Part shown: positions 1-5,340 of the stretch, piece after piece
How the letters are laid out: every line of letters begins with the position of its first letter
Position numbering within the stretch: position 1 is the first letter of the stretch
Source of the DNA: a virus
Lineage: Duplodnaviria > Heunggongvirae > Uroviricota > Caudoviricetes
Virus record (IMG/VR): IMGVR_UViG_2541047120_000017
Length of the DNA: 5,340 nucleotides
Reading direction: 5' to 3' (one strand)
The notes under the pieces: generated by a model
The model's database searches: none
Seen by the model: the letters and a program-made list of their open reading frames with translations, nothing else
Told to the model about the DNA's origin: nothing
Translations under genes and position numbers: made by a program

Positions 1-101
1 GTTTTGCTTTTGGTATACGTCATCGCGGTGAATGTACCGTCCTGGTTGGGAAACACGCCGTACACCAGAGATTCGTTGTTGCCAAGATCGATAGTATCCA
101 T
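1..101 (-). CDS. Small prophage protein, N-terminal part only (gene continues past window start); N-terminus MDTIDLGNNESLVYGVFPNQDGTFTAMTYTKSK; resembles DUF1391 (YdfA/YdaF-type) small proteins
   Basis: ATG at 101-99 on the minus strand with GAGG 5 nt upstream; frame stays open to the window edge. Not in the supplied ORF track because it is truncated. Family assignment is recalled, not verified. Confidence 0.5.
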   Translation of the reverse strand, partial: MDTIDLGNNESLVYGVFPNQDGTFTAMTYTKSK

Positions 102-287
102 GTTGACCTCATTTCCCCTTAACGCCGGGTAGCGGAACAAAAACCTGCTGCATAGTTATTAAAGTTGAACCCTGCCGTCATGTTCATACGCCTCGGGCTG
201 GCTACTTACCCCCTGACCACTGCTTGGTAACTCGAAGTATTGCCCGGCGTTCTGTGGGGCGGGGTGGGTGGTTGGTGTATGTAATCT

Positions 288-327
288 ACAATAAAAAACT
301 GTTTTTGTGTCAACAGTTTTTAATTGT
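288..327. promoter_or_regulatory. Palindromic operator-like site (OL-like): ACAATAAAAAACTGT (288-302), 10-nt spacer, ACAGTTTTTAATTGT (313-327, one mismatch to the perfect inverse)
   Basis: The 16-mer ACAATAAAAAACTGTT is identical to the one at 1323-1338. The site lies upstream of the minus-strand gene starting at 101 and just past the parE terminator. TTGACA on the minus strand (313-308) sits in the spacer. Confidence 0.5.
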
Positions 328-337
328 TGTTTTGGGC

Positions 338-360
338 AAAAAAATCCCTCGAAAGAGGGA
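338..360 (-). terminator. Rho-independent terminator candidate for the repressor-antitoxin-toxin operon
   Basis: On the minus-strand transcript: 6-bp stem UCCCUC/GAGGGA (345-350 with 355-360) with a 4-nt loop, followed directly by U7 (plus-strand A-run 338-344). It begins about 20 nt after the toxin stop at 379-381. Confidence 0.5.
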
Positions 361-378
361 GTATGAAAATTGTTCAAC

Positions 379-666
379 TCAGATAGAGAAGGGAAATTGT
401 CGCCGAGAATGTGTCACGCTTACAATCTCAATGCTTGAAGCAGCTACTCTGTACAGGATTATGTAGTTAGGGTGGGTCACGATCTCTCTCAATCCAGAAA
501 CCCGTTCGCTTGGTGGATATAAGTACGGATGCTCAGATAGAGGTAATACCGATGTTTCAATGCGTATTTTTAGTCTACGTGCTGCCGGTGGGTTCTCCTT
601 GGCGATGTAAGTTATGATCTGGCGCAAATCATCGCGAGCAGACGGTAGCCATAAAATGGGTAACAT
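379..666 (-). CDS. parE: ParE/RelE-family toxin of a type II toxin-antitoxin system (ParE2-like, 95 aa)
   Basis: ORF track 379..666. Motifs LWLPSARDDLRQIITYIA, LPLSEHPYLYPPSERVSGLREIV and HPNYIILYRV...IEIV fit the ParE fold. Its ATG overlaps the stop of the upstream small ORF (minus-strand TAATG at 668-664). Confidence 0.85.
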   Translation of the reverse strand: MLPILWLPSARDDLRQIITYIAKENPPAARRLKIRIETSVLPLSEHPYLYPPSERVSGLREIVTHPNYIILYRVAASSIEIVSVTHSRRQFPFSI

Positions 667-857
667 TACTCGCTCTTGTTAGTTACAGCAATTTGAGCAA
701 TAAGATTTTCCATTTCAGCCATTACCTCGTCATGTGGAATTGCGGGGCGAGTGTCTGCAAGGCTTGACGTTACTTTAGTGCGCAACCATTCGTTGTAACT
801 GTTTTCTTGTTCGGTAGTTTCGAATTCTGAAACTATCGGAGAAAGGGCTGTACCCAT
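666..857 (-). CDS. paaA: Small acidic antitoxin (PaaA2-like, 63 aa) partnered with the ParE toxin
   Basis: ORF track 666..857. GAGGAG lies 7 nt upstream of the ATG at 857. The stop is coupled to the toxin start. Size and the segment SEFETTEQENSYNEWLRTKV...RPAIPHDEV match the recalled PaaA2 antitoxin. Confidence 0.75.
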   Translation of the reverse strand: MGTALSPIVSEFETTEQENSYNEWLRTKVTSSLADTRPAIPHDEVMAEMENLIAQIAVTNKSE

Positions 858-884
858 GGCATAACTCCTCTTCTTGTACTGTGG

Positions 885-1286
885 TCACGCCCGGCGGCTT
901 TTTTGTGCCGCCAGCCACCTAGCAATGGTTTCTTCCATTGATTTTTTCTTGTCTTTGATTTCTTGAAGCATTTTTTCTTGGTCTTCCTCAGGAAACGCAC
1001 TAAAAGCTTGGAGCAGTTCGCGTTGGCGAGGACCAATTTTCATCGTGTCAGGGGTGAAAATTTGCTCACACTCTTCAGGAGGCAATAAAAACCAATGCAA
1101 TGGATGCCCTGAAACCTCAACCAGTTTATCCAAACTTGAGGCTTTAGGTGTAGCCTTACCGCTGACCCATTGTTGAACAGTTTGTTGTGTCACACCAATT
1201 CTACGGGCAAGCTCAGCCTGGCTCCATCCAGTTTCCTGAAGAAGCTTGCTGATTCTGTACATAGATACTTCTAGGGCGCTCATCAT
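885..1286 (-). CDS. paaR: DicA/cI-type HTH repressor without a peptidase domain (PaaR2-like regulator; likely prophage maintenance repressor), 133 aa
   Basis: ORF track 885..1286. XRE-type HTH (SQAELARRIGVTQQTVQQWVSGK) and a C-terminal part (RELLQAFSAFPEEDQEKMLQE) parallel DicA architecture. It is divergent from the Cro-like gene. Tandem ATGATG start with no SD; alternative start at 1283. Confidence 0.85.
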   Translation of the reverse strand: MMSALEVSMYRISKLLQETGWSQAELARRIGVTQQTVQQWVSGKATPKASSLDKLVEVSGHPLHWFLLPPEECEQIFTPDTMKIGPRQRELLQAFSAFPEEDQEKMLQEIKDKKKSMEETIARWLAAQKSRRA

Positions 1287-1322
1287 TATTCAATTTTACA
1301 GGTAAATACTGTTAAAAGCATC

Positions 1323-1361
1323 ACAATAAAAAACTGTTGATTGCATACAGTTTTTTATTGT
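1323..1361. promoter_or_regulatory. Palindromic operator-like site (OR-like) in the divergent repressor/Cro-like intergenic region: ACAATAAAAAACTGT (1323-1337), 9-nt spacer, ACAGTTTTTTATTGT (1347-1361), a perfect 15-bp inverted repeat
   Basis: Perfect inverted repeat read directly from the sequence, duplicated at 288-327. It sits between the repressor start (1286) and the Cro-like start (1395). Confidence 0.55.
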
Positions 1362-1394
1362 AGGTTTTGCTTATAGTTTTTAGAGGAGGGCAAA

Positions 1395-1667
1395 ATGCTA
1401 GATAGCACTCGCGAAAAAATTAGGCAGAAATACACTCAGGCTGAAATAGGTCGTTATATGGGGGTCGCTCAACAGACTGTTTGGCAATGGTTTAGCTTTG
1501 GCGTTCCCCCAAAGCAGGTAATTCCGTTATGCCAACTAATGAAGTGGGAAGTTACCCCGCATGAAATCCGCCCAGATATTTATCCTAACCCAACCGACGG
1601 TTTACCTGTTGGATGTAAGGTTAACACATCAAATGCGCCGGAGTTGATTCATGAAAATCAAGCATGA
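1395..1667 (+). CDS. Cro-like HTH regulator of the YdaS type (90 aa)
   Basis: ORF track 1395..1667. Strong SD GAGGAGGG 4-5 nt upstream. HTH segment TQAEIGRYMGVAQQTVWQWF and the VTPHEIRPDIY motif are typical of YdaS-type Cro analogues. Divergent from the repressor. Confidence 0.8.
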   Translation: MLDSTREKIRQKYTQAEIGRYMGVAQQTVWQWFSFGVPPKQVIPLCQLMKWEVTPHEIRPDIYPNPTDGLPVGCKVNTSNAPELIHENQA

Positions 1668-2076
1668 ACACATCCGCATGGCGATGAATGCCTGGGCGCA
1701 TCCGGACGGCGAAAAAGTACCGGCTGCGAAAATTACCAAAGCGTATTTCGAGCTGGGAATGACGTTCCCGGAACTGTATGACGACAGCCATCCGGAAGCC
1801 ATGGCTCGCAATACTCAGAAAATTTTCCGCTGGGTGGAGAAAGACACTCCTGATGCGGTTAAAAAAATTCAGGCGTTGTTACCAGCGATCGAAAAAGCGA
1901 TGCCGCCTCCGCTGGTGGCCCGAATGCGCAGCCACAGTTCCGCTTATTTTCGGGAGTTGGTAGAGACGAAGGAACGGCTGGTGAAAGATATTGATGATTT
2001 CGTTGCATCAGCGATCGTTCTGTTCGATCAGATGAATCGTGGTGGCCCGGCAGGAAACACTCTGGCTGTGCATTAA
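1651..2076 (+). CDS. ydaT: YdaT-type protein (CII-like regulator family, 141 aa)
   Basis: ORF track 1651..2076. GGAG 7 nt upstream of the ATG. N-terminus MKIKHEHI and overall size match the recalled Rac YdaT. Overlaps the preceding gene by 17 nt. Confidence 0.8.
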   Translation: MKIKHEHIRMAMNAWAHPDGEKVPAAKITKAYFELGMTFPELYDDSHPEAMARNTQKIFRWVEKDTPDAVKKIQALLPAIEKAMPPPLVARMRSHSSAYFRELVETKERLVKDIDDFVASAIVLFDQMNRGGPAGNTLAVH

Positions 2077-2089
2077 TTGGGTAATAAAT

Positions 2090-2599
2090 ATGAGTAATGA
2101 CAAAAAATTGACACTGAGCGTTTACGAAAACAGTCCGCACATCTGGCGTGGCGGTTTATCTGATGTGGAGCTGGCAGAGTGGTTGATACATAAAGCTAAT
2201 GCGCTGCTCTGGCGTTTGTCAGCCAGAGAACAGCGCAAGGAAACCAGAATAAAGCTGGCTGATGCAGAAGCGTGTGCCGGGCTTATTGAGGATTATACAA
2301 ATCTTGGTATTTCTTCAGCAGAGAGTGATCCCATTCAGCCTCTGAGCAGGGAGTCAATCCAGCACGCTGGTTGTATGGCACATCTTGTAACTGCTCGTCA
2401 ACATGAGGTGGGTATTGGATCACTTCCGGCGGGATATTCGCTGATTCCAGAGCTGGTTGAAGCAAGAAAATCAGTTCAGAAAAAGAGAGATGACGCACTT
2501 CAATTATTGAGAGAGCACTATGGCGCGATACCAGAATGCGAACAGCGTCGATACCCTGAAGGTTATGAATGGATGCAGTCTCTTTTTGAAGTTCGCTAA
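2090..2599 (+). CDS. Hypothetical protein of unknown function (169 aa), start chosen at MSNDKK
   Basis: In-frame ATG at 2090, 13 nt after the ydaT-like stop. Hand-counted first-codon-position base use is coding-like (G about 34 percent), and CAG>CAA, AAA>AAG. The track ORF 2039..2599 would overlap ydaT. It competes with an antisense ORF at 2283-2738. Confidence 0.55.
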   Translation: MSNDKKLTLSVYENSPHIWRGGLSDVELAEWLIHKANALLWRLSAREQRKETRIKLADAEACAGLIEDYTNLGISSAESDPIQPLSRESIQHAGCMAHLVTARQHEVGIGSLPAGYSLIPELVEARKSVQKKRDDALQLLREHYGAIPECEQRRYPEGYEWMQSLFEVR

Positions 2600-2816
2600 T
2601 CAATATGTCGAGACGAAGGTATGTTTCGGCGCGCAGCCAGGCTCTGTAATCCGGGAGCATTTCGGGGCTGTTACACCAGCGGTTTGTTGCTGCAACATTT
2701 AATACATGAGCCTGATAAAGGCTTTTCAAAAAATACATGTCGAACCTCCTCTGGTTCTGTCGATTGGGAACCACAGATTATATCCGGAGGAAGGTTCGGC
2801 ACCAGATGAGGTAGCC

Positions 2817-3908
2817 ATGCGTGATTACGCAAAAGTTTCTCCGCGATTCTGGCTGGGAGAAACGGGGAGAGAACTTAGAAAGGCGGGTGCAGAAGCGCAA
2901 GTTGTTGCTTTTTACCTGATGACATCCCCTCACGCAAATATGCTGGGTTTGTATTACCTGCCAGTTTTATACCTTGCTCATGAAACCGGGCTTGGTCTGG
3001 AAGGGGCTTCAAAGGGGCTTAAAAGGGCTGTTGAAGCTGGTTTTTGTAGCTATGACCATGATGCAGAGATGGTCTGGGTCCATGAAATGGCAGCCTGGCA
3101 GGTTGGGGAAACGTTGAAGCCTGGCGATAACCGTTGTGCAGGTGTCAGGAATGAGTATGCATCATTACCTGAAAACGCTTTTCTGTCAGTGTTTTACGAC
3201 AGATATAAAACGGATTTCCATCTGGATGTGAGGCGGAATAATAGCCGAAATTCGGTAAGGGGCTTCGAAGGGGCTTTTAAGGGGCTTCGAAGCCAAGAAC
3301 AGGAACAGGAGCAGGAGAAAGAACAGGAACAGGACAAAAACACTATGGTTCATGGCAAAAAAAACACCACGAACCAGGCAGGGGATGTTCAGACCGTCAA
3401 TCCTGGTCAGCCAGCAGGCACGACACCGGAAGCCGATTCGGGCGCTGTGCAGCAGGTGATGACCGCAGGGTCGGAGCAATCACACCAACTGCAGCAGCCT
3501 GAAGCCGATTCCGCCATTCAGCGGGAAGCCGATCGGGTAGTCCCGGAAAGCACCGGGCAGTCTGTGGGACGAGTGGATTATCCGGATGTGTTCGAACAGG
3601 TCTGGCGGGAATACCCGTTGCGTGCTGGGGCAAACCCGAAGAAATCCGCTTTCAGTGCCTGGAAGGCCAGATTGCGCGAGGGGGTGCCACCAGAGACCAT
3701 GCTGGATGGTGTGAGGCGTTACGCGAGATACCTGGCGGCGACCGGGAAAGCGGGAACGGAATTTGTTCAGCGAGCGACGACGTTTTTTGGGCCGGACCGG
3801 AATTTTGAAAACCCCTGGTTGCTCCCGGTAAGCGGCACGAACAACCAGCGTTGTGTGAATCATATTTCTGAACCGGATACCGAAATTCCGCCGGGATTCA
3901 GGGGGTGA
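2817..3908 (+). CDS. Replication initiation protein (lambda O-like role; occupies the position just upstream of the DnaC-like gene), about 363 aa
   Basis: ORF track 2706..3908. Start preferred at the ATG at 2817 because GAGG lies 5 nt upstream, whereas the ATG at 2706 has no SD. N-terminal domain, low-complexity E/Q-rich linker and C-terminal domain. Iteron-like DNA repeats lie inside the gene. Immediately followed by the helicase-loader gene. Confidence 0.8.
   Translation: MRDYAKVSPRFWLGETGRELRKAGAEAQVVAFYLMTSPHANMLGLYYLPVLYLAHETGLGLEGASKGLKRAVEAGFCSYDHDAEMVWVHEMAAWQVGETLKPGDNRCAGVRNEYASLPENAFLSVFYDRYKTDFHLDVRRNNSRNSVRGFEGAFKGLRSQEQEQEQEKEQEQDKNTMVHGKKNTTNQAGDVQTVNPGQPAGTTPEADSGAVQQVMTAGSEQSHQLQQPEADSAIQREADRVVPESTGQSVGRVDYPDVFEQVWREYPLRAGANPKKSAFSAWKARLREGVPPETMLDGVRRYARYLAATGKAGTEFVQRATTFFGPDRNFENPWLLPVSGTNNQRCVNHISEPDTEIPPGFRG
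2988..3030. repeat. Iteron-like cluster A: GGGCTT-type motifs at 2988, 3004, 3014 and 3025 (AAGGGGCTTC / AAAGGGGCTT / AAAAGGGCTG)
   Basis: Direct repeats at 10-11 bp spacing inside the initiator coding sequence. Successive copies are read in different codon frames. Confidence 0.4.
3257..3289. repeat. Iteron-like cluster B: three tandem 11-bp units AAGGGGCTTCG / AAGGGGCTTTT / AAGGGGCTTCG
   Basis: Exact tandem repeats with 11-bp period. The three copies are translated in three different frames (RGF / EGAF / KGLR), so the repeat is a DNA-level feature. Confidence 0.5.
3297..3338 (+). repeat. Hexanucleotide tandem repeat (GAACAG)n, 7 units with variants, encoding an (EQ)n linker
   Basis: Units GAACAG GAACAG GAGCAG GAGAAA GAACAG GAACAG GACAAA read directly from the sequence. 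In frame with the initiator gene. Confidence 0.7.
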
Positions 3909-3914
3909 TGTGGC

Positions 3915-4661
3915 ATGAAAAACATTGCGGCAGCCGGGGTTCTTGAACGTATTCGCAGACTTGCACCACAGGCGTCGGTTCCACCGTACCGGACGGTGGA
4001 GGAGTGGCGGGAATGGCAACTTGCTGAAGGACGAAAACGCAGCGAGGAGATTAACCGCCAGAATCACCAGTTGCGGGTGGAAAAAATCCTGAATCGTTCG
4101 GGCATCCAGCCTCTGCACAGCAAATGCTCGTTTGCGAATTATCAGGTGCAGAACGACGGGCAAAAATACGCGCTGAGCCAGGCCAAATCCATAGCTGACG
4201 AACTGATGACCGGGTGCACGAATTTTGTGTTCAGCGGTAAAACCGGCACCGGGAAAAATCACCTTGCAGCGGCGATGGGTAACCGGCTGATGGCGAAGGG
4301 GCGCAGCGTGATTATCGTCACCGTGTCTGATGTCATGAGCGTGTTGCATGACAGCTACGACAACGGCAAATCCGGGGAAAAATTTTTACAGGAGCTTTGC
4401 AGTGTTGATTTGCTGGTCCTGGATGAAATAGGCGTTCAGCGGGAGACGAAAAACGAGCAGGTGGTATTACACCAGATAATTGATCGCCGGACAGCATCAC
4501 TGTGCAGTGTCGGGATGTTAACAAACCTGAATCATGCCGCAATGAGTACACTTCTTGGTGAGAGGATTATGGACCGCATGACCATGAACGGTGGTCGATG
4601 GGTGACGTTTAACTGGGATAGCTGGCGTCCAAATGTCAGCAATATGAGGGTTGTGAAGTAA
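3915..4661 (+). CDS. dnaC: DnaC-type AAA+ helicase loader (phage replication protein; YdaV-position), 248 aa
   Basis: ORF track 3915..4661. Walker A FSGKTGTGKNHLAAA, with the GKN variant characteristic of DnaC. Walker B LLVLDEIG. C-terminal WVTFNWDSWR resembles the DnaC C-terminus. SD GGGGGTGA upstream. Confidence 0.9.
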   Translation: MKNIAAAGVLERIRRLAPQASVPPYRTVEEWREWQLAEGRKRSEEINRQNHQLRVEKILNRSGIQPLHSKCSFANYQVQNDGQKYALSQAKSIADELMTGCTNFVFSGKTGTGKNHLAAAMGNRLMAKGRSVIIVTVSDVMSVLHDSYDNGKSGEKFLQELCSVDLLVLDEIGVQRETKNEQVVLHQIIDRRTASLCSVGMLTNLNHAAMSTLLGERIMDRMTMNGGRWVTFNWDSWRPNVSNMRVVK

Positions 4662-4682
4662 TTTTGTCCGGAGGAAATTTTA

Positions 4683-5340
4683 ATGGAAACCGTATCTGAC
4701 GCACTGAAAGCACTGAAAAAAGCCTCTTCACATGTGGTGGCAGCTCGCCTTGGAATTAGTCGTGAAGAGGCTGTCAACGAACTGTGGAAACTGAAACGCC
4801 GTGGAGAAGCGGATAACAAGGGGGCGATATGGTGGCTGACTCAGGCTGGTGAAAGTGAACCGGTGTCACCGGTACCGAAAGTGACGGCGCAAATGCTGAC
4901 AGAGGCGATTGAACAACATGGCCCACAAACGGCGGATGAACTGGCATTGATGTTCGGAATTACCTCCCGCCGGGCGAATTCATCGCTGGCAATGGCAATC
5001 AGCAAAGGGGGTCTGATTCGCGTGAATCAGGATGGTAAATTTCGTTACTGCATACCGGGCGTTGATTTACCGGCAGAGCCGAAAGCAGCATCCGTAGCTG
5101 AAACGGAGGGTAAAGCCCTTCCTCAGCCAGCTGGTGTTGCGTTACCAGTCCAGGAAACGGCTGCACAGGAAGAAATTAAAACAGAAGCGGTGGAGGACAT
5201 TGTGAAGTTGCAGCAATCGTTCACTGAAGCGAAAGCAGATGACCTGATTCTACCATCGCTGCATGTGGCTAACCGCGAGCTGCGCCGGGCGAAAAGTAAT
5301 GTTCAGAAGTGGGAGCGAGTCTGTGCTGCGCTACGGGAAC
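4683..5340 (+). CDS. Hypothetical protein, N-terminal 219 codons only (runs off the window end); two tandem winged-helix-like units
   Basis: ATG at 4683 with GGAGG 8 nt upstream; no stop codon to the window end (checked codon by codon). Not in the ORF track because it is truncated. Begins [44 protein letters not shown]. Confidence 0.7.

Follow-up and report, generated by a model that had tools for sequence, protein, structure and literature searches.

Three co-oriented genes on the minus strand of the 5,340-nucleotide stretch of viral DNA analyzed here (the window) raise the question of whether a toxin-antitoxin (TA) pair is coupled to the immunity switch of a prophage. The original prediction was that a ParE toxin and its acidic antitoxin, resembling the PaaR-PaaA-ParE three-component systems, lie directly behind an HTH regulator which may also be the lysogeny repressor, so that toxin expression would be wired to that switch.

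By sequence, the locus is the paaR1-paaA1-parE1 toxin-antitoxin operon of the Escherichia coli O157:H7 prophage Sp4/CP-933M. The ParE, PaaA, PaaR, YdaS, and YdaT proteins are each 100% identical to ECs_1067 to ECs_1071 of prophage Sp4 in O157:H7 Sakai, and positions 1 to 4796 of the window share 99.9% DNA identity with Sakai Sp4. With Sp4 treated as the prophage that in Sakai corresponds to CP-933M of EDL933, the protein identities lead to the assignment. The block is present at two places in O157:H7 genomes, in agreement with the two published paralogs, the operon of CP-933M being a paralog of paaR2-paaA2-parE2 (Hallez 2010, as cited in PMC8630535 and PMC4803016). The likeness to the O157 paaR2 system proposed at the outset is real, and the actual locus is the other O157:H7 paralog. 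Only positions 4797 to 5340 (~540 bp, a DUF1627 gene) diverge from Sakai, and the source is therefore another STEC-like E. coli strain. This operon is published biology that has already been described and is not a new finding. An Rfam search of the whole window (E ≤ 1) gave no match.

The two cargo genes belong to the families proposed for them. ParE1 matched Pfam ParE_toxin (PF05016) at 63.5 bits (cutoff, 23; E = 2.9e-17), with residues 4 to 91 covering model positions 1 to 89 of 89, and was 65% identical over residues 1 to 93 to crystallized ParE2 (PDB 5cw7_B; E = 3e-36); it is a basic protein (pI 9.9). The antitoxin PaaA1 (11 D+E versus 4 K+R; pI 4.4) had PaaA2 (PF21217) as its sole Pfam match, at 68.3 bits (cutoff, 27; E = 5.6e-19), exceeded the cutoff of 50 for NCBIfam NF050103 (92.1 bits), and was 62% identical to PaaA2 (PDB 3zbe; E = 1.4e-20). 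These matches, with the Sp4 identities, bear out both the ParE hallmarks and the three-component match of the original prediction, whose gene coordinates and sizes (133, 63, and 95 aa) agree exactly with the list of open reading frames. Its reading of the junctions was likewise recovered directly on the minus strand: the paaR1-paaA1 gap (858 to 884) is 27 nt long, carries GAGGAG, and reads ...AAGAGGAGTTATGCCATG, and in the string TAATG (668 to 664) the paaA1 stop codon TAA (668 to 666) shares one base with the parE1 ATG (666 to 664). The 27-nt gap, the 1-nt overlap, and one terminator past parE1 are compatible with a single operon.

Toxicity of the O157 paralogs and SOS induction or topoisomerase poisoning trace to Hallez 2010, as cited in PMC8630535 and PMC4803016, and ParE2 is described in PMC8630535 as colocalizing with the nucleoid and inducing SOS. 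PaaA2 is a substrate of the ClpAP and ClpXP proteases (PMC8630535), and PaaA1 and PaaA2 do not cross-neutralize, according to PMC4803016. A single operon repressed jointly by PaaR and the PaaA-ParE complex has been shown for paaR2 only (PMC8630535, PMC4803016).

The regulator PaaR1 is composed of an N-terminal Cro/C1-type HTH (HTH_3, PF01381; 47.2 bits; cutoff, 23), which probably sets immunity specificity, and a conserved C-terminal module of ~47 aa that is kept in 7/7 repressors aligned. A scan of 35 Pfam families found no Peptidase_S24 (LexA-like autocleavage) domain in the 133-aa PaaR1, which is therefore a CI analog of the DicA/PaaR2 type rather than a member of the lambda CI family; the Sp4 repressor was listed in 2009 as a CI analog without a peptidase domain (PMC2669165). 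The DicA profile (NCBIfam NF007257) scored PaaR1 below its cutoff (51.5 versus 101 bits) while aligning residues 11 to 130 with model positions 9 to 131 of 135 (E = 8e-14). A sequence search of the PDB with PaaR1 returned generic HTH domains only (434 repressor, HipB), there being no deposited structure of PaaR2.

For comparison, an O55:H7 genome supplied the true paaR2 locus (L007), which agrees with the published one in its ParE (identical to PDB ParE2 at 92/92 positions), in the start of its regulator (MQKKE), and in the length of its intergenic region (97 bp). Two other candidates (L004 and L005; ~76% and ~72% DNA matches) were rejected as the paaR2 locus, as their ParE proteins are 62 to 68% identical to ParE2, and they represent further variants. 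Between PaaR1 and PaaR2, the C-terminal 47 aa are identical at 30 positions (64%) and the N-terminal HTH at only 15 of 75, and the homology is therefore modular. The idea that the C terminus travels as a unit with the TA genes was rejected, as TA-free repressors of Salmonella, Klebsiella, and Morganella keep the module.

The context of paaR1, read from the FRIK944 and Sakai Sp4 annotations and the open reading frames of the window (Table 1), fits the slot of a CI analog. The gene is divergent from the Cro analog, lies upstream of the CII analog and the replication genes, and has the int/exo/dicB genes on its other side. A separate repressor elsewhere in the prophage had been named as evidence that would speak against the proposed role; the Sp4 annotation lists no second repressor.

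TABLE 1 Features of the immunity region, in window coordinates
Feature	Position	Strand	Description
OL-like operator pair	283..332	-	288-302 ACAATAAAAAACTGT; 313-327, motif inverted, 1 mismatch
PL-like leftward promoter, candidate		-	Overlaps OL-like pair; -35 TTGACA (313->308), 19-nt spacer, -10-like TAGATT (288->283)
Intrinsic terminator of paaR1-paaA1-parE1 operon	345..360	-	TCCCTCTTTCGAGGGA then TTTTTTTG; 19 nt past parE1 stop
parE1	379..666	-	ParE-family toxin (95 aa); same sequence as Sakai ECs_1067; Pfam, PDB, Sp4 identity
paaA1	666..857	-	63-aa acidic antitoxin; identical to Sakai ECs_1068; no DNA-binding domain
Shine-Dalgarno GAGGAG for paaA1	865..870	-	7 nt ahead of ATG, within the 27-nt gap
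paaR1	885..1286	-	133-aa DicA-like prophage repressor; same sequence as Sakai ECs_1069, annotated "phage repressor protein"
PRM-like -10 hexamer TAAAAT	1293..1298	-	6 nt ahead of paaR1 ATG; no Shine-Dalgarno
OR-like operator region	1298..1361	.	Three ACA-N9-TGT sites: 1298-1312, 1323-1337, 1347-1361
PR-like rightward promoter, candidate	1337..1366	+	-35 TTGATT (1337-1342), 18-nt spacer, -10-like TAGGTT (1361-1366)
ydaS-like Cro analog (90 aa)	1395..1667	+	Pfam YdaS_toxin, 8e-10; PHROG 35, 9e-29
YdaT (CII-analog) recognition box, predicted	1644..1661	.	TTGATTCATGAAAATCAA, at ydaS/ydaT junction
ydaT-like CII analog (141 aa)	1651..2076	+	Pfam YdaT_toxin, 1.2e-9; PHROG 163 "CII-like transcriptional activator," 4e-46

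The palindromes seen originally on both sides of the operon proved to be real. The motif ACAATAAAAAACTGT occurs four times with at most one mismatch (288, 313, 1323, and 1347), confined to the operon's flanks, and none of 200 shuffles gave four or more matches. In the OR-like region, the second and third sites form a perfect inverted pair of ACAATAAAAAACTGT, and the first (ACAGGTAAATACTGT) lies over the PRM-like promoter. A generic sigma-70 scan of the paaR1-ydaS intergenic region (1287 to 1394) called no promoter, and promoters were therefore placed by the layout conserved across loci of four species: the TTGAyy-N18-TAnnnT arrangement of the PR-like promoter recurs at the loci from Salmonella, Klebsiella, and Morganella. 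The -35 elements (TTGACA and TTGATT) fall between operator arms, and the spacer of the candidate PR-like promoter covers operator 1347-1361. For the leftward side, we infer from the sequence a PL-like promoter over the OL-like pair; the loci of those three genera likewise carry a ACAATAAAAAACTGT-type pair on the downstream side of the cargo. The close spacing of TAAAAT and the paaR1 ATG and the missing Shine-Dalgarno sequence predict a leaderless paaR1 mRNA. This geometry (-10 hexamer, 6 nt, ATG) is shared with paaR2 (GATAAT, 6 nt, ATG in L007), for which leaderless translation was shown experimentally (PMC8630535). The ydaS gene is preceded by GAGGAGG (1383 to 1389).

Comparison across loci separates the repressor from its cargo. 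Repressors 68 to 80% identical to PaaR1 occur in Salmonella, Klebsiella, and Morganella, where they are divergent from ydaS/ydaT and adjoin replication genes; PaaA and ParE are absent beside them, and similar operator pairs are kept at the OR and OL positions. A mosaic map against Salmonella showed only paaA-parE (361 to 874) to be replaced, and one against CP-933P showed only HTH, OR, and ydaS (about 950 to 1640) to be nonhomologous. The OR-like sites are conserved where the HTH is PaaR1-like. Where the HTH is of another kind (L004, L007, and phages Tritos and 689R5), these sites are missing, no ACAATAAAAAACTGT-type operator pair was found, and operators and Cro analog both differ. YdaS is only 19% identical to CP-933P YdaS, and the Cro analog therefore covaries with the repressor HTH. 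[quoted passage not shown]

Position, operators on both flanks, this covariation, and the TA-free homologs in the same slot together support the reading of PaaR1 as the lysogeny repressor, or CI analog, which the original prediction had raised and the literature already holds (PMC2669165; PMC8630535 for the paralog). PaaR2 has been shown to be a CI analog that represses PR and PL, the wiring of CP-933P being experimental (Jurenas 2021, PMC8630535). With so few HTH residues in common, function is transferred from PaaR2 to PaaR1 by architecture and C-terminal homology rather than by homology of DNA binding. We consider it very probable that a lambdoid (Rac/Qin-like) prophage, Sp4/CP-933M, has its immunity region here, with a CI-analog repressor that carries a TA pair as cargo. 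Sp4 is defective and its repressor lacks a peptidase domain, and a genuine lysis-lysogeny decision may therefore no longer occur.

In the mechanism that we propose, paaR1 would probably be transcribed as a leaderless mRNA from the PRM-like promoter, with paaA1-parE1 cotranscribed as cargo up to the terminator, placed as rexA-rexB are placed behind lambda cI. As dimers or oligomers, PaaR1 would bind the ACA-N9-TGT operators that flank the operon, with three sites at OR, between paaR1 and ydaS, and two at OL, over the leftward promoter toward the DUF1391/ydfB/dicB genes. Once bound, PaaR1 would repress the early promoters in both directions, rightward and leftward, and regulate its own operon, YdaS would compete as the Cro analog at OR, and YdaT, acting as the CII analog at its box (1644 to 1661), would give rise to a PRE-like leftward transcript. 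The repressed, lysogen-like state would supply labile PaaA1 and stable ParE1 continuously, with ParE1 neutralized in a direct complex with PaaA1. If the immunity region were deleted or replaced by recombination, the supply of antitoxin would stop and free ParE1, which, by homology to ParE2, would act on the nucleoid or topoisomerases and induce SOS. The region would thereby be addictive. Operator occupancy, promoter positions, and addiction are what we infer for the paaR1 locus; for the CP-933P paralog, the roles of repressor, Cro, and CII, leaderless translation, bistability, and postsegregational killing have been shown (PMC8630535).

The same position behind the repressor could suit a different function, in which the TA pair would be abortive-infection or superinfection-exclusion cargo, a functional analog of lambda RexAB made from the repressor promoter of the lysogen. 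Some TA systems act in phage defense, the pair is placed like rexAB behind cI, and the slot behind the repressor carries varied cargo in related prophages. We nevertheless regard this function as improbable: ParE1 and PaaA1 matched 0 families in PADLOC-DB (the repressor gave generic HTH matches only), no phage-defense phenotype was found in the PaaR-PaaA-ParE literature examined, and the published phenotype of the paralog is postsegregational killing (PMC8630535). Of the predicted wiring of toxin to immunity switch, the transcriptional embedding thus stands, addiction is established only for the paralog, and abortive infection found no backing in PADLOC.

A second possibility is that flipping the switch to the Cro/YdaS state itself frees the toxin, with PRM turned off, PaaA decaying, and ParE1 killing, so that induction would be lethal or growth arresting. 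The position of the TA genes downstream of the repressor promoter and the proteolysis of PaaA2 are in line with this scenario. It is made quite unlikely by CP-933P, in which both subpopulations transcribed the TA genes, the SOS-positive fractions were equal (0.88% versus 0.95%), and flipping of the switch led to no toxin activation (PMC8630535). With the paralogous TA genes transcribed in both states and no toxin activated, the wiring to the switch may, by analogy, have little phenotypic consequence.

It is very improbable that PaaR1 is instead a dedicated TA regulator, the DNA-binding half separated from a split antitoxin, its adjacency to a Cro-like gene incidental and the prophage without a functional immunity repressor. 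PaaA has no DNA-binding domain, the classical description is of a "three-component TA" whose operon is regulated by PaaR (PMC4803016), and the idea of a split antitoxin was raised in the discussion of the CP-933P study (PMC8630535). Against this, the TA-free relatives of PaaR1 fill the same slot, the HTH covaries with Cro and operators and not with the TA genes, PaaR2 represses PR and PL, and the operators are repeated at the OL-like site past the terminator, where a TA autoregulator would have no reason to bind. It is hardly credible that the 95-aa toxin acts as a ribosome-dependent mRNA interferase of the RelE type rather than as a ParE, for although its sole NCBIfam match is TIGR02385 RelE_StbE (28.4 bits; cutoff, 27.9) and the antitoxin bears the RefSeq name "RelB family," its match to Pfam ParE_toxin is far stronger and its full-length relative ParE2 is deposited as ParE, colocalizes with the nucleoid, and induces SOS.

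One of the closest known systems is paaR2-paaA2-parE2 with ydaS-ydaT in CP-933P/Sp12 (Jurenas 2021, PMC8630535). The two share gene order, the prophage slot between dicB-side genes and ydaS-ydaT-O, operators at both OR and OL, an identical YdaT box, and the protein identities given above, to which YdaT adds 86%. They differ in repressor HTH, in Cro analog, and in operators (ACAATAAAAAACTGT here, GTTTAGTAA-type repeats there), and by sequence the paaR1 locus is a heteroimmune version of the CP-933P system. Lambda cI-rexA-rexB offers the same plan, a repressor gene followed by cotranscribed host-affecting cargo between OR-like and OL-like operators, a leaderless repressor mRNA (predicted here), and divergent cro and cII analogs followed by replication genes; there is, however, no sequence homology, PaaR1 lacks the S24 autocleavage domain, and a type II TA rather than Rex makes up the cargo. 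DicA of Qin is of equal size, is matched over its full length, and plays the same role as PaaR1 upstream of a dicB-containing leftward operon, whereas the subthreshold score makes PaaR1 DicA-like rather than a DicA equivalog and no TA pair lies behind DicA. The canonical ParD-ParE systems (RK2, Caulobacter) share the ParE-fold toxin, the small, labile upstream antitoxin, and overlapping genes; in contrast, the antitoxin here is PaaA type with no RHH DNA-binding domain, and a separate phage repressor takes over transcriptional control.

The value of the locus as a discovery is small: the system is named, its repressor is already annotated, and the embedding of the paralog in a bistable switch with CI-, Cro-, and CII-like parts has been demonstrated experimentally. 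Three minor additions may be useful for extending the CP-933P work to CP-933M, namely, a concrete set of operators predicted for PaaR1 (ACA-N9-TGT at 1298, 1323, 1347 and 288, 313), comparative evidence for a repressor family that occurs independently of the TA genes, and base-level limits of the TA cargo cassette (about 361 to 874) inside a swappable immunity module.

A more speculative extension concerns YdaT. The box in the window is an exact match to the published motif TTGATT-N6-AATCAA (PMC9986795), and in CP-933P a PRE-like promoter (PRE933P) sits at the ydaS/ydaT junction (PMC8630535). With YdaT conserved as it is between the two prophages and the 18-bp box TTGATTCATGAAAATCAA identical or nearly so, YdaT of one prophage could activate the PRE-like promoter of the other. 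We offer tentatively, as a rather unlikely proposal, that the two heteroimmune O157:H7 switches of CP-933M and CP-933P are cross-coupled in this way and that the interval from the repressor stop to the terminator and OL is an exchangeable cargo site. If so, expression of repressor and TA genes would be coupled between two otherwise independent bistable switches. In other enterobacteria, the cargo site holds uncharacterized, overlapping two-gene cassettes, which may be new TA or exclusion modules.

The three co-oriented minus-strand genes are arranged as originally predicted from the sequence: in the ORF list and the sequence alike, a 27-nt gap (858-884) containing GAGGAG (870->865, 7 nt 5' of the antitoxin ATG) separates the regulator and antitoxin genes, and the antitoxin stop and toxin start share one base in TAATG (668->664). 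A stem-loop followed by a T-run (360->345), 19 nt past the toxin stop codon, closes the operon. The expected ParE identity of the basic 95-aa product (pI 9.9) was borne out by Pfam ParE_toxin (63.5 bits; cut-off 23) and by an end-to-end alignment with crystallised ParE2 of Escherichia coli O157 (5cw7; E=3e-36, 65% identity). The acidic 63-aa product (pI 4.4) likewise scored 68.3 bits against Pfam PaaA2 (cut-off 27) and matched the PaaA2 structure 3zbe (E=1.4e-20, 62% identity), and Pfam profiles detected no DNA-binding domain in it. The 133-aa protein carries a Cro/C1-type helix-turn-helix (HTH_3, 47.2 bits); the NCBIfam DicA model matches it from end to end, although the score of 51.5 bits falls under the cut-off of 101. 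Pfam and NCBIfam profiles found no S24 peptidase domain in this protein. The plus-strand genes beyond it were assigned by profile searches as YdaS-type (Cro-like) and YdaT-type, the latter through the PHROG family "CII-like transcriptional activator" (4e-46); the same searches gave an O-like replication gene and a DnaC-like loader.

Positions 1-4796 match E. coli O157:H7 chromosomes at 99.9% identity, and the Sakai counterpart sits in the annotated "prophage Sp4, lambda-like phage," adjoining yccA. All five of the ParE, PaaA, regulator, YdaS, and YdaT proteins are identical to Sakai proteins. Two sites per O157:H7 genome match the block. The window is the other O157 copy, paaR1-paaA1-parE1, since its toxin and antitoxin share only 65% and 62% identity with crystallised ParE2 and PaaA2, respectively. 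We regard Sp4 as the equivalent of CP-933M in Sakai, a correspondence stated nowhere in the cited literature. No cross-neutralisation is reported between the PaaA1 and PaaA2 systems (PMC4803016). Identity with Sp4 of O157:H7 Sakai and FRIK944 ends at 4796, within a DUF1627 gene, and the last ~540 bp (4797-5340) diverge; full-length matches (96% coverage) reach just 95% identity and lie in E. coli genomes of other strains, 97-3250 among them. The source prophage is therefore a mosaic that none of the complete E. coli genomes in the search carries in exactly this form.

Features of the prophage window and of cargo in related loci
Feature	Locus	Coordinates	Strand	Details
Regulator ORF (paaR1)	window	885-1286	minus	133 aa; Sakai ECs_1069, annotated "phage repressor protein"
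Antitoxin ORF (paaA1)	window	666-857	minus	63 aa; Sakai ECs_1068
Toxin ORF (parE1)	window	379-666	minus	95 aa; Sakai ECs_1067, annotated "plasmid stabilization system protein"
Predicted OR-like inverted pair	window	1323-1337 + 1347-1361		between regulator and ydaS; 100% complementary
Predicted OL-like pair	window	288-302 + 313-327		past operon terminator
Weaker predicted ACA-N9-TGT site	window	1298-1312		adjoins regulator start
ORF	window	2090-2599	plus	169 aa; PHROG 8304, end-to-end match, E=4e-120
ORF	window	2283-2738	minus	151 aa; NCBIfam phage_ECs1072, E=2e-30; RefSeq-annotated
Salmonella cargo	L009	4577-4915		112 aa; EACC1 match just sub-threshold (22.7 vs 23.6 bits)
Klebsiella cargo	L012	4484-5247		overlapping 84- and 170-aa pair
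Morganella cargo	L017	964-1669		overlapping 143- and 95-aa pair

Five independent lines of sequence evidence (operators, promoter layout, leaderless geometry, toxin-antitoxin-free homologs, and mosaic boundaries) argue that the regulator is the prophage repressor, as had been proposed. The predicted operator, ACAATAAAAAACTGT, occurs in four copies in the window and nowhere else in it (at most one mismatch), a number of matches reached in 0 of 200 shuffles. The pair past the operon terminator points to a CI analogue, for which both OR and OL are expected, rather than to a dedicated toxin-antitoxin autoregulator, for which sites past its own terminator would serve no purpose. Each operator pair has a -35 element (TTGATT/TTGACA) between its arms and a TAnnnT hexamer just beyond the distal arm, and since relatives in Salmonella, Klebsiella, and Morganella repeat this arrangement, we infer promoters at both pairs. 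No Shine-Dalgarno sequence was seen upstream of paaR1; TAAAAT stands 6 nt 5' of its ATG, the same geometry as in the experimentally leaderless paaR2 (GATAAT, 6 nt, ATG) and reminiscent of lambda cI. Homologs of the repressor in Salmonella (80% identity), Klebsiella (68%), and Morganella (68%) are found at the equivalent position, where they diverge from ydaS/ydaT and adjoin replication genes, with unrelated genes behind them in place of PaaA/ParE. Those loci keep ACA-N9-TGT pairs at the OR and OL positions, and such sites are absent from the different-HTH loci and phages (L004, a further variant of the locus; L007, a CP-933P-type locus; Tritos; and 689R5). Against Salmonella, the region from OL to ydaS is homologous save for 361-874, which is exactly paaA-parE. 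A separate repressor elsewhere in the prophage would have spoken against this role, and none is annotated in Sp4.

Two intermediate matches, L004 and L005, are not the paaR2 locus but proved to be further variants. The real CP-933P-type locus was found in an O55:H7 genome (L007), where ParE is identical to PDB ParE2 at 92 of 92 residues, the regulator begins MQKKE, and the 97-bp intergenic region carries GTTTAGTAA-type repeats, all in agreement with published paaR2. The C-terminal 47 aa of the window repressor are 64% identical to this PaaR2, whereas the HTH domains share only 15 of 75 residues; YdaS is 19% and YdaT 86% identical. The window and the CP-933P type are homologous throughout, save for about 950-1640 (the HTH domain, OR, and ydaS), a classical immunity-specificity cassette.

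Much of this has precedent. In CP-933P, Jurenas et al. (2021) described PaaR2 as a CI analogue that is translated from an mRNA without a leader. Both PaaR2 and YdaS gave footprints at the intergenic promoters, and both repress, in addition, a PL-like promoter whose OL sites lie beyond the toxin-antitoxin genes; YdaT switches on a PRE-like promoter that lies between its own gene and ydaS, and the locus is bistable (PMC8630535). Asadulghani et al. (2009) listed Sp4 with an antirepressor (Cro) and with a repressor missing the peptidase domain on which SOS induction depends (PMC2669165). The repressor assignment is thus correct, yet it repeats what publications on the paralogue and an earlier annotation of the same gene had already said. 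The literature covers the locus and its components, as well as their prophage context and regulatory logic, and the window proteins are identical to named genes. The new items are small: a set of operators predicted for PaaR1, evidence of covariation and modularity, and a YdaT box identical in the two O157 prophages. The YdaT recognition sequence is TTGATT-N6-AATCAA (PMC9986795), with an exact match at 1644-1661, at the ydaS/ydaT junction; this 18-bp box, TTGATTCATGAAAATCAA, is identical at L007 5252-5269. Since the box is the same in both prophages and YdaT is 86% identical, the two CII analogues might, although the repressor, operator, and Cro modules are unrelated, cross-activate within one O157:H7 cell, a speculative and rather unlikely prospect.

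In the model with the best support, PaaR1 would be produced in the repressed state from a PRM-like promoter together with PaaA1 and ParE1, and PaaA1 would sequester ParE1. Were the immunity region lost or replaced, the antitoxin supply would end and the toxin would act. The paralogue antitoxin, PaaA2, is degraded by ClpAP/ClpXP; the complete ydaST-RAE2 region equals ccdAB in stabilising a mini-F plasmid, and the authors of that study propose that it guards the immunity region from recombinational replacement (PMC8630535). Two observations temper the suggestion that the toxin is wired to the immunity switch. The paralogue toxin-antitoxin genes are transcribed in both states, with equal SOS-positive fractions (0.88% versus 0.95%), and a change of state therefore fails to free the toxin there (PMC8630535). 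Sp4 itself is also defective, and SOS induction through its repressor is absent (PMC2669165). An abortive-infection function, improbable although the position analogous to lambda rexAB would allow for it, found no support, as PADLOC returned no model match for ParE1 or PaaA1 and the cited literature on these systems reports no such phenotype.

Where prophages of Salmonella, Klebsiella, and Morganella carry PaaR1-like repressors, other cargo fills the slot between the repressor stop and OL. The Klebsiella and Morganella pairs gave no Pfam, NCBIfam, or convincing PADLOC matches, and all three cargos may be uncharacterised toxin-antitoxin or exclusion cassettes. Phages Tritos (L002) and vB_EcoS-689R5 (L003) share the window flanks (1-270, 95-98% identity; 1640-2074, 91%) and have another CI and Cro between them and no toxin-antitoxin genes; judged from these comparisons, 271-1640 behaves as a single exchangeable immunity-plus-cargo cassette.

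Between ydaT and the O-like gene, two long ORFs overlap in antisense (2090-2738), each matched by a different family library; this spacer (about 2077-2816) is missing in the L004, L005, and L007 variants. The lambda origin is located within O, and five direct repeats of AAGGGGCTT (3001, 3012, 3257, 3268, and 3279; span 3001-3287) lie within the O-like replication-initiator gene as candidate origin iterons, adjoined by a low-complexity (EQ)n linker at about 3296-3335. In E. coli 23CRST049 (L005 4894-4920, minus strand), TAAAAT-GAATGC-ATG-AAG-CGA-ATG precedes the annotated repressor start, and the in-frame ATG 6 nt past the -10-like hexamer points to a true, leaderless start three codons upstream of the RefSeq start.
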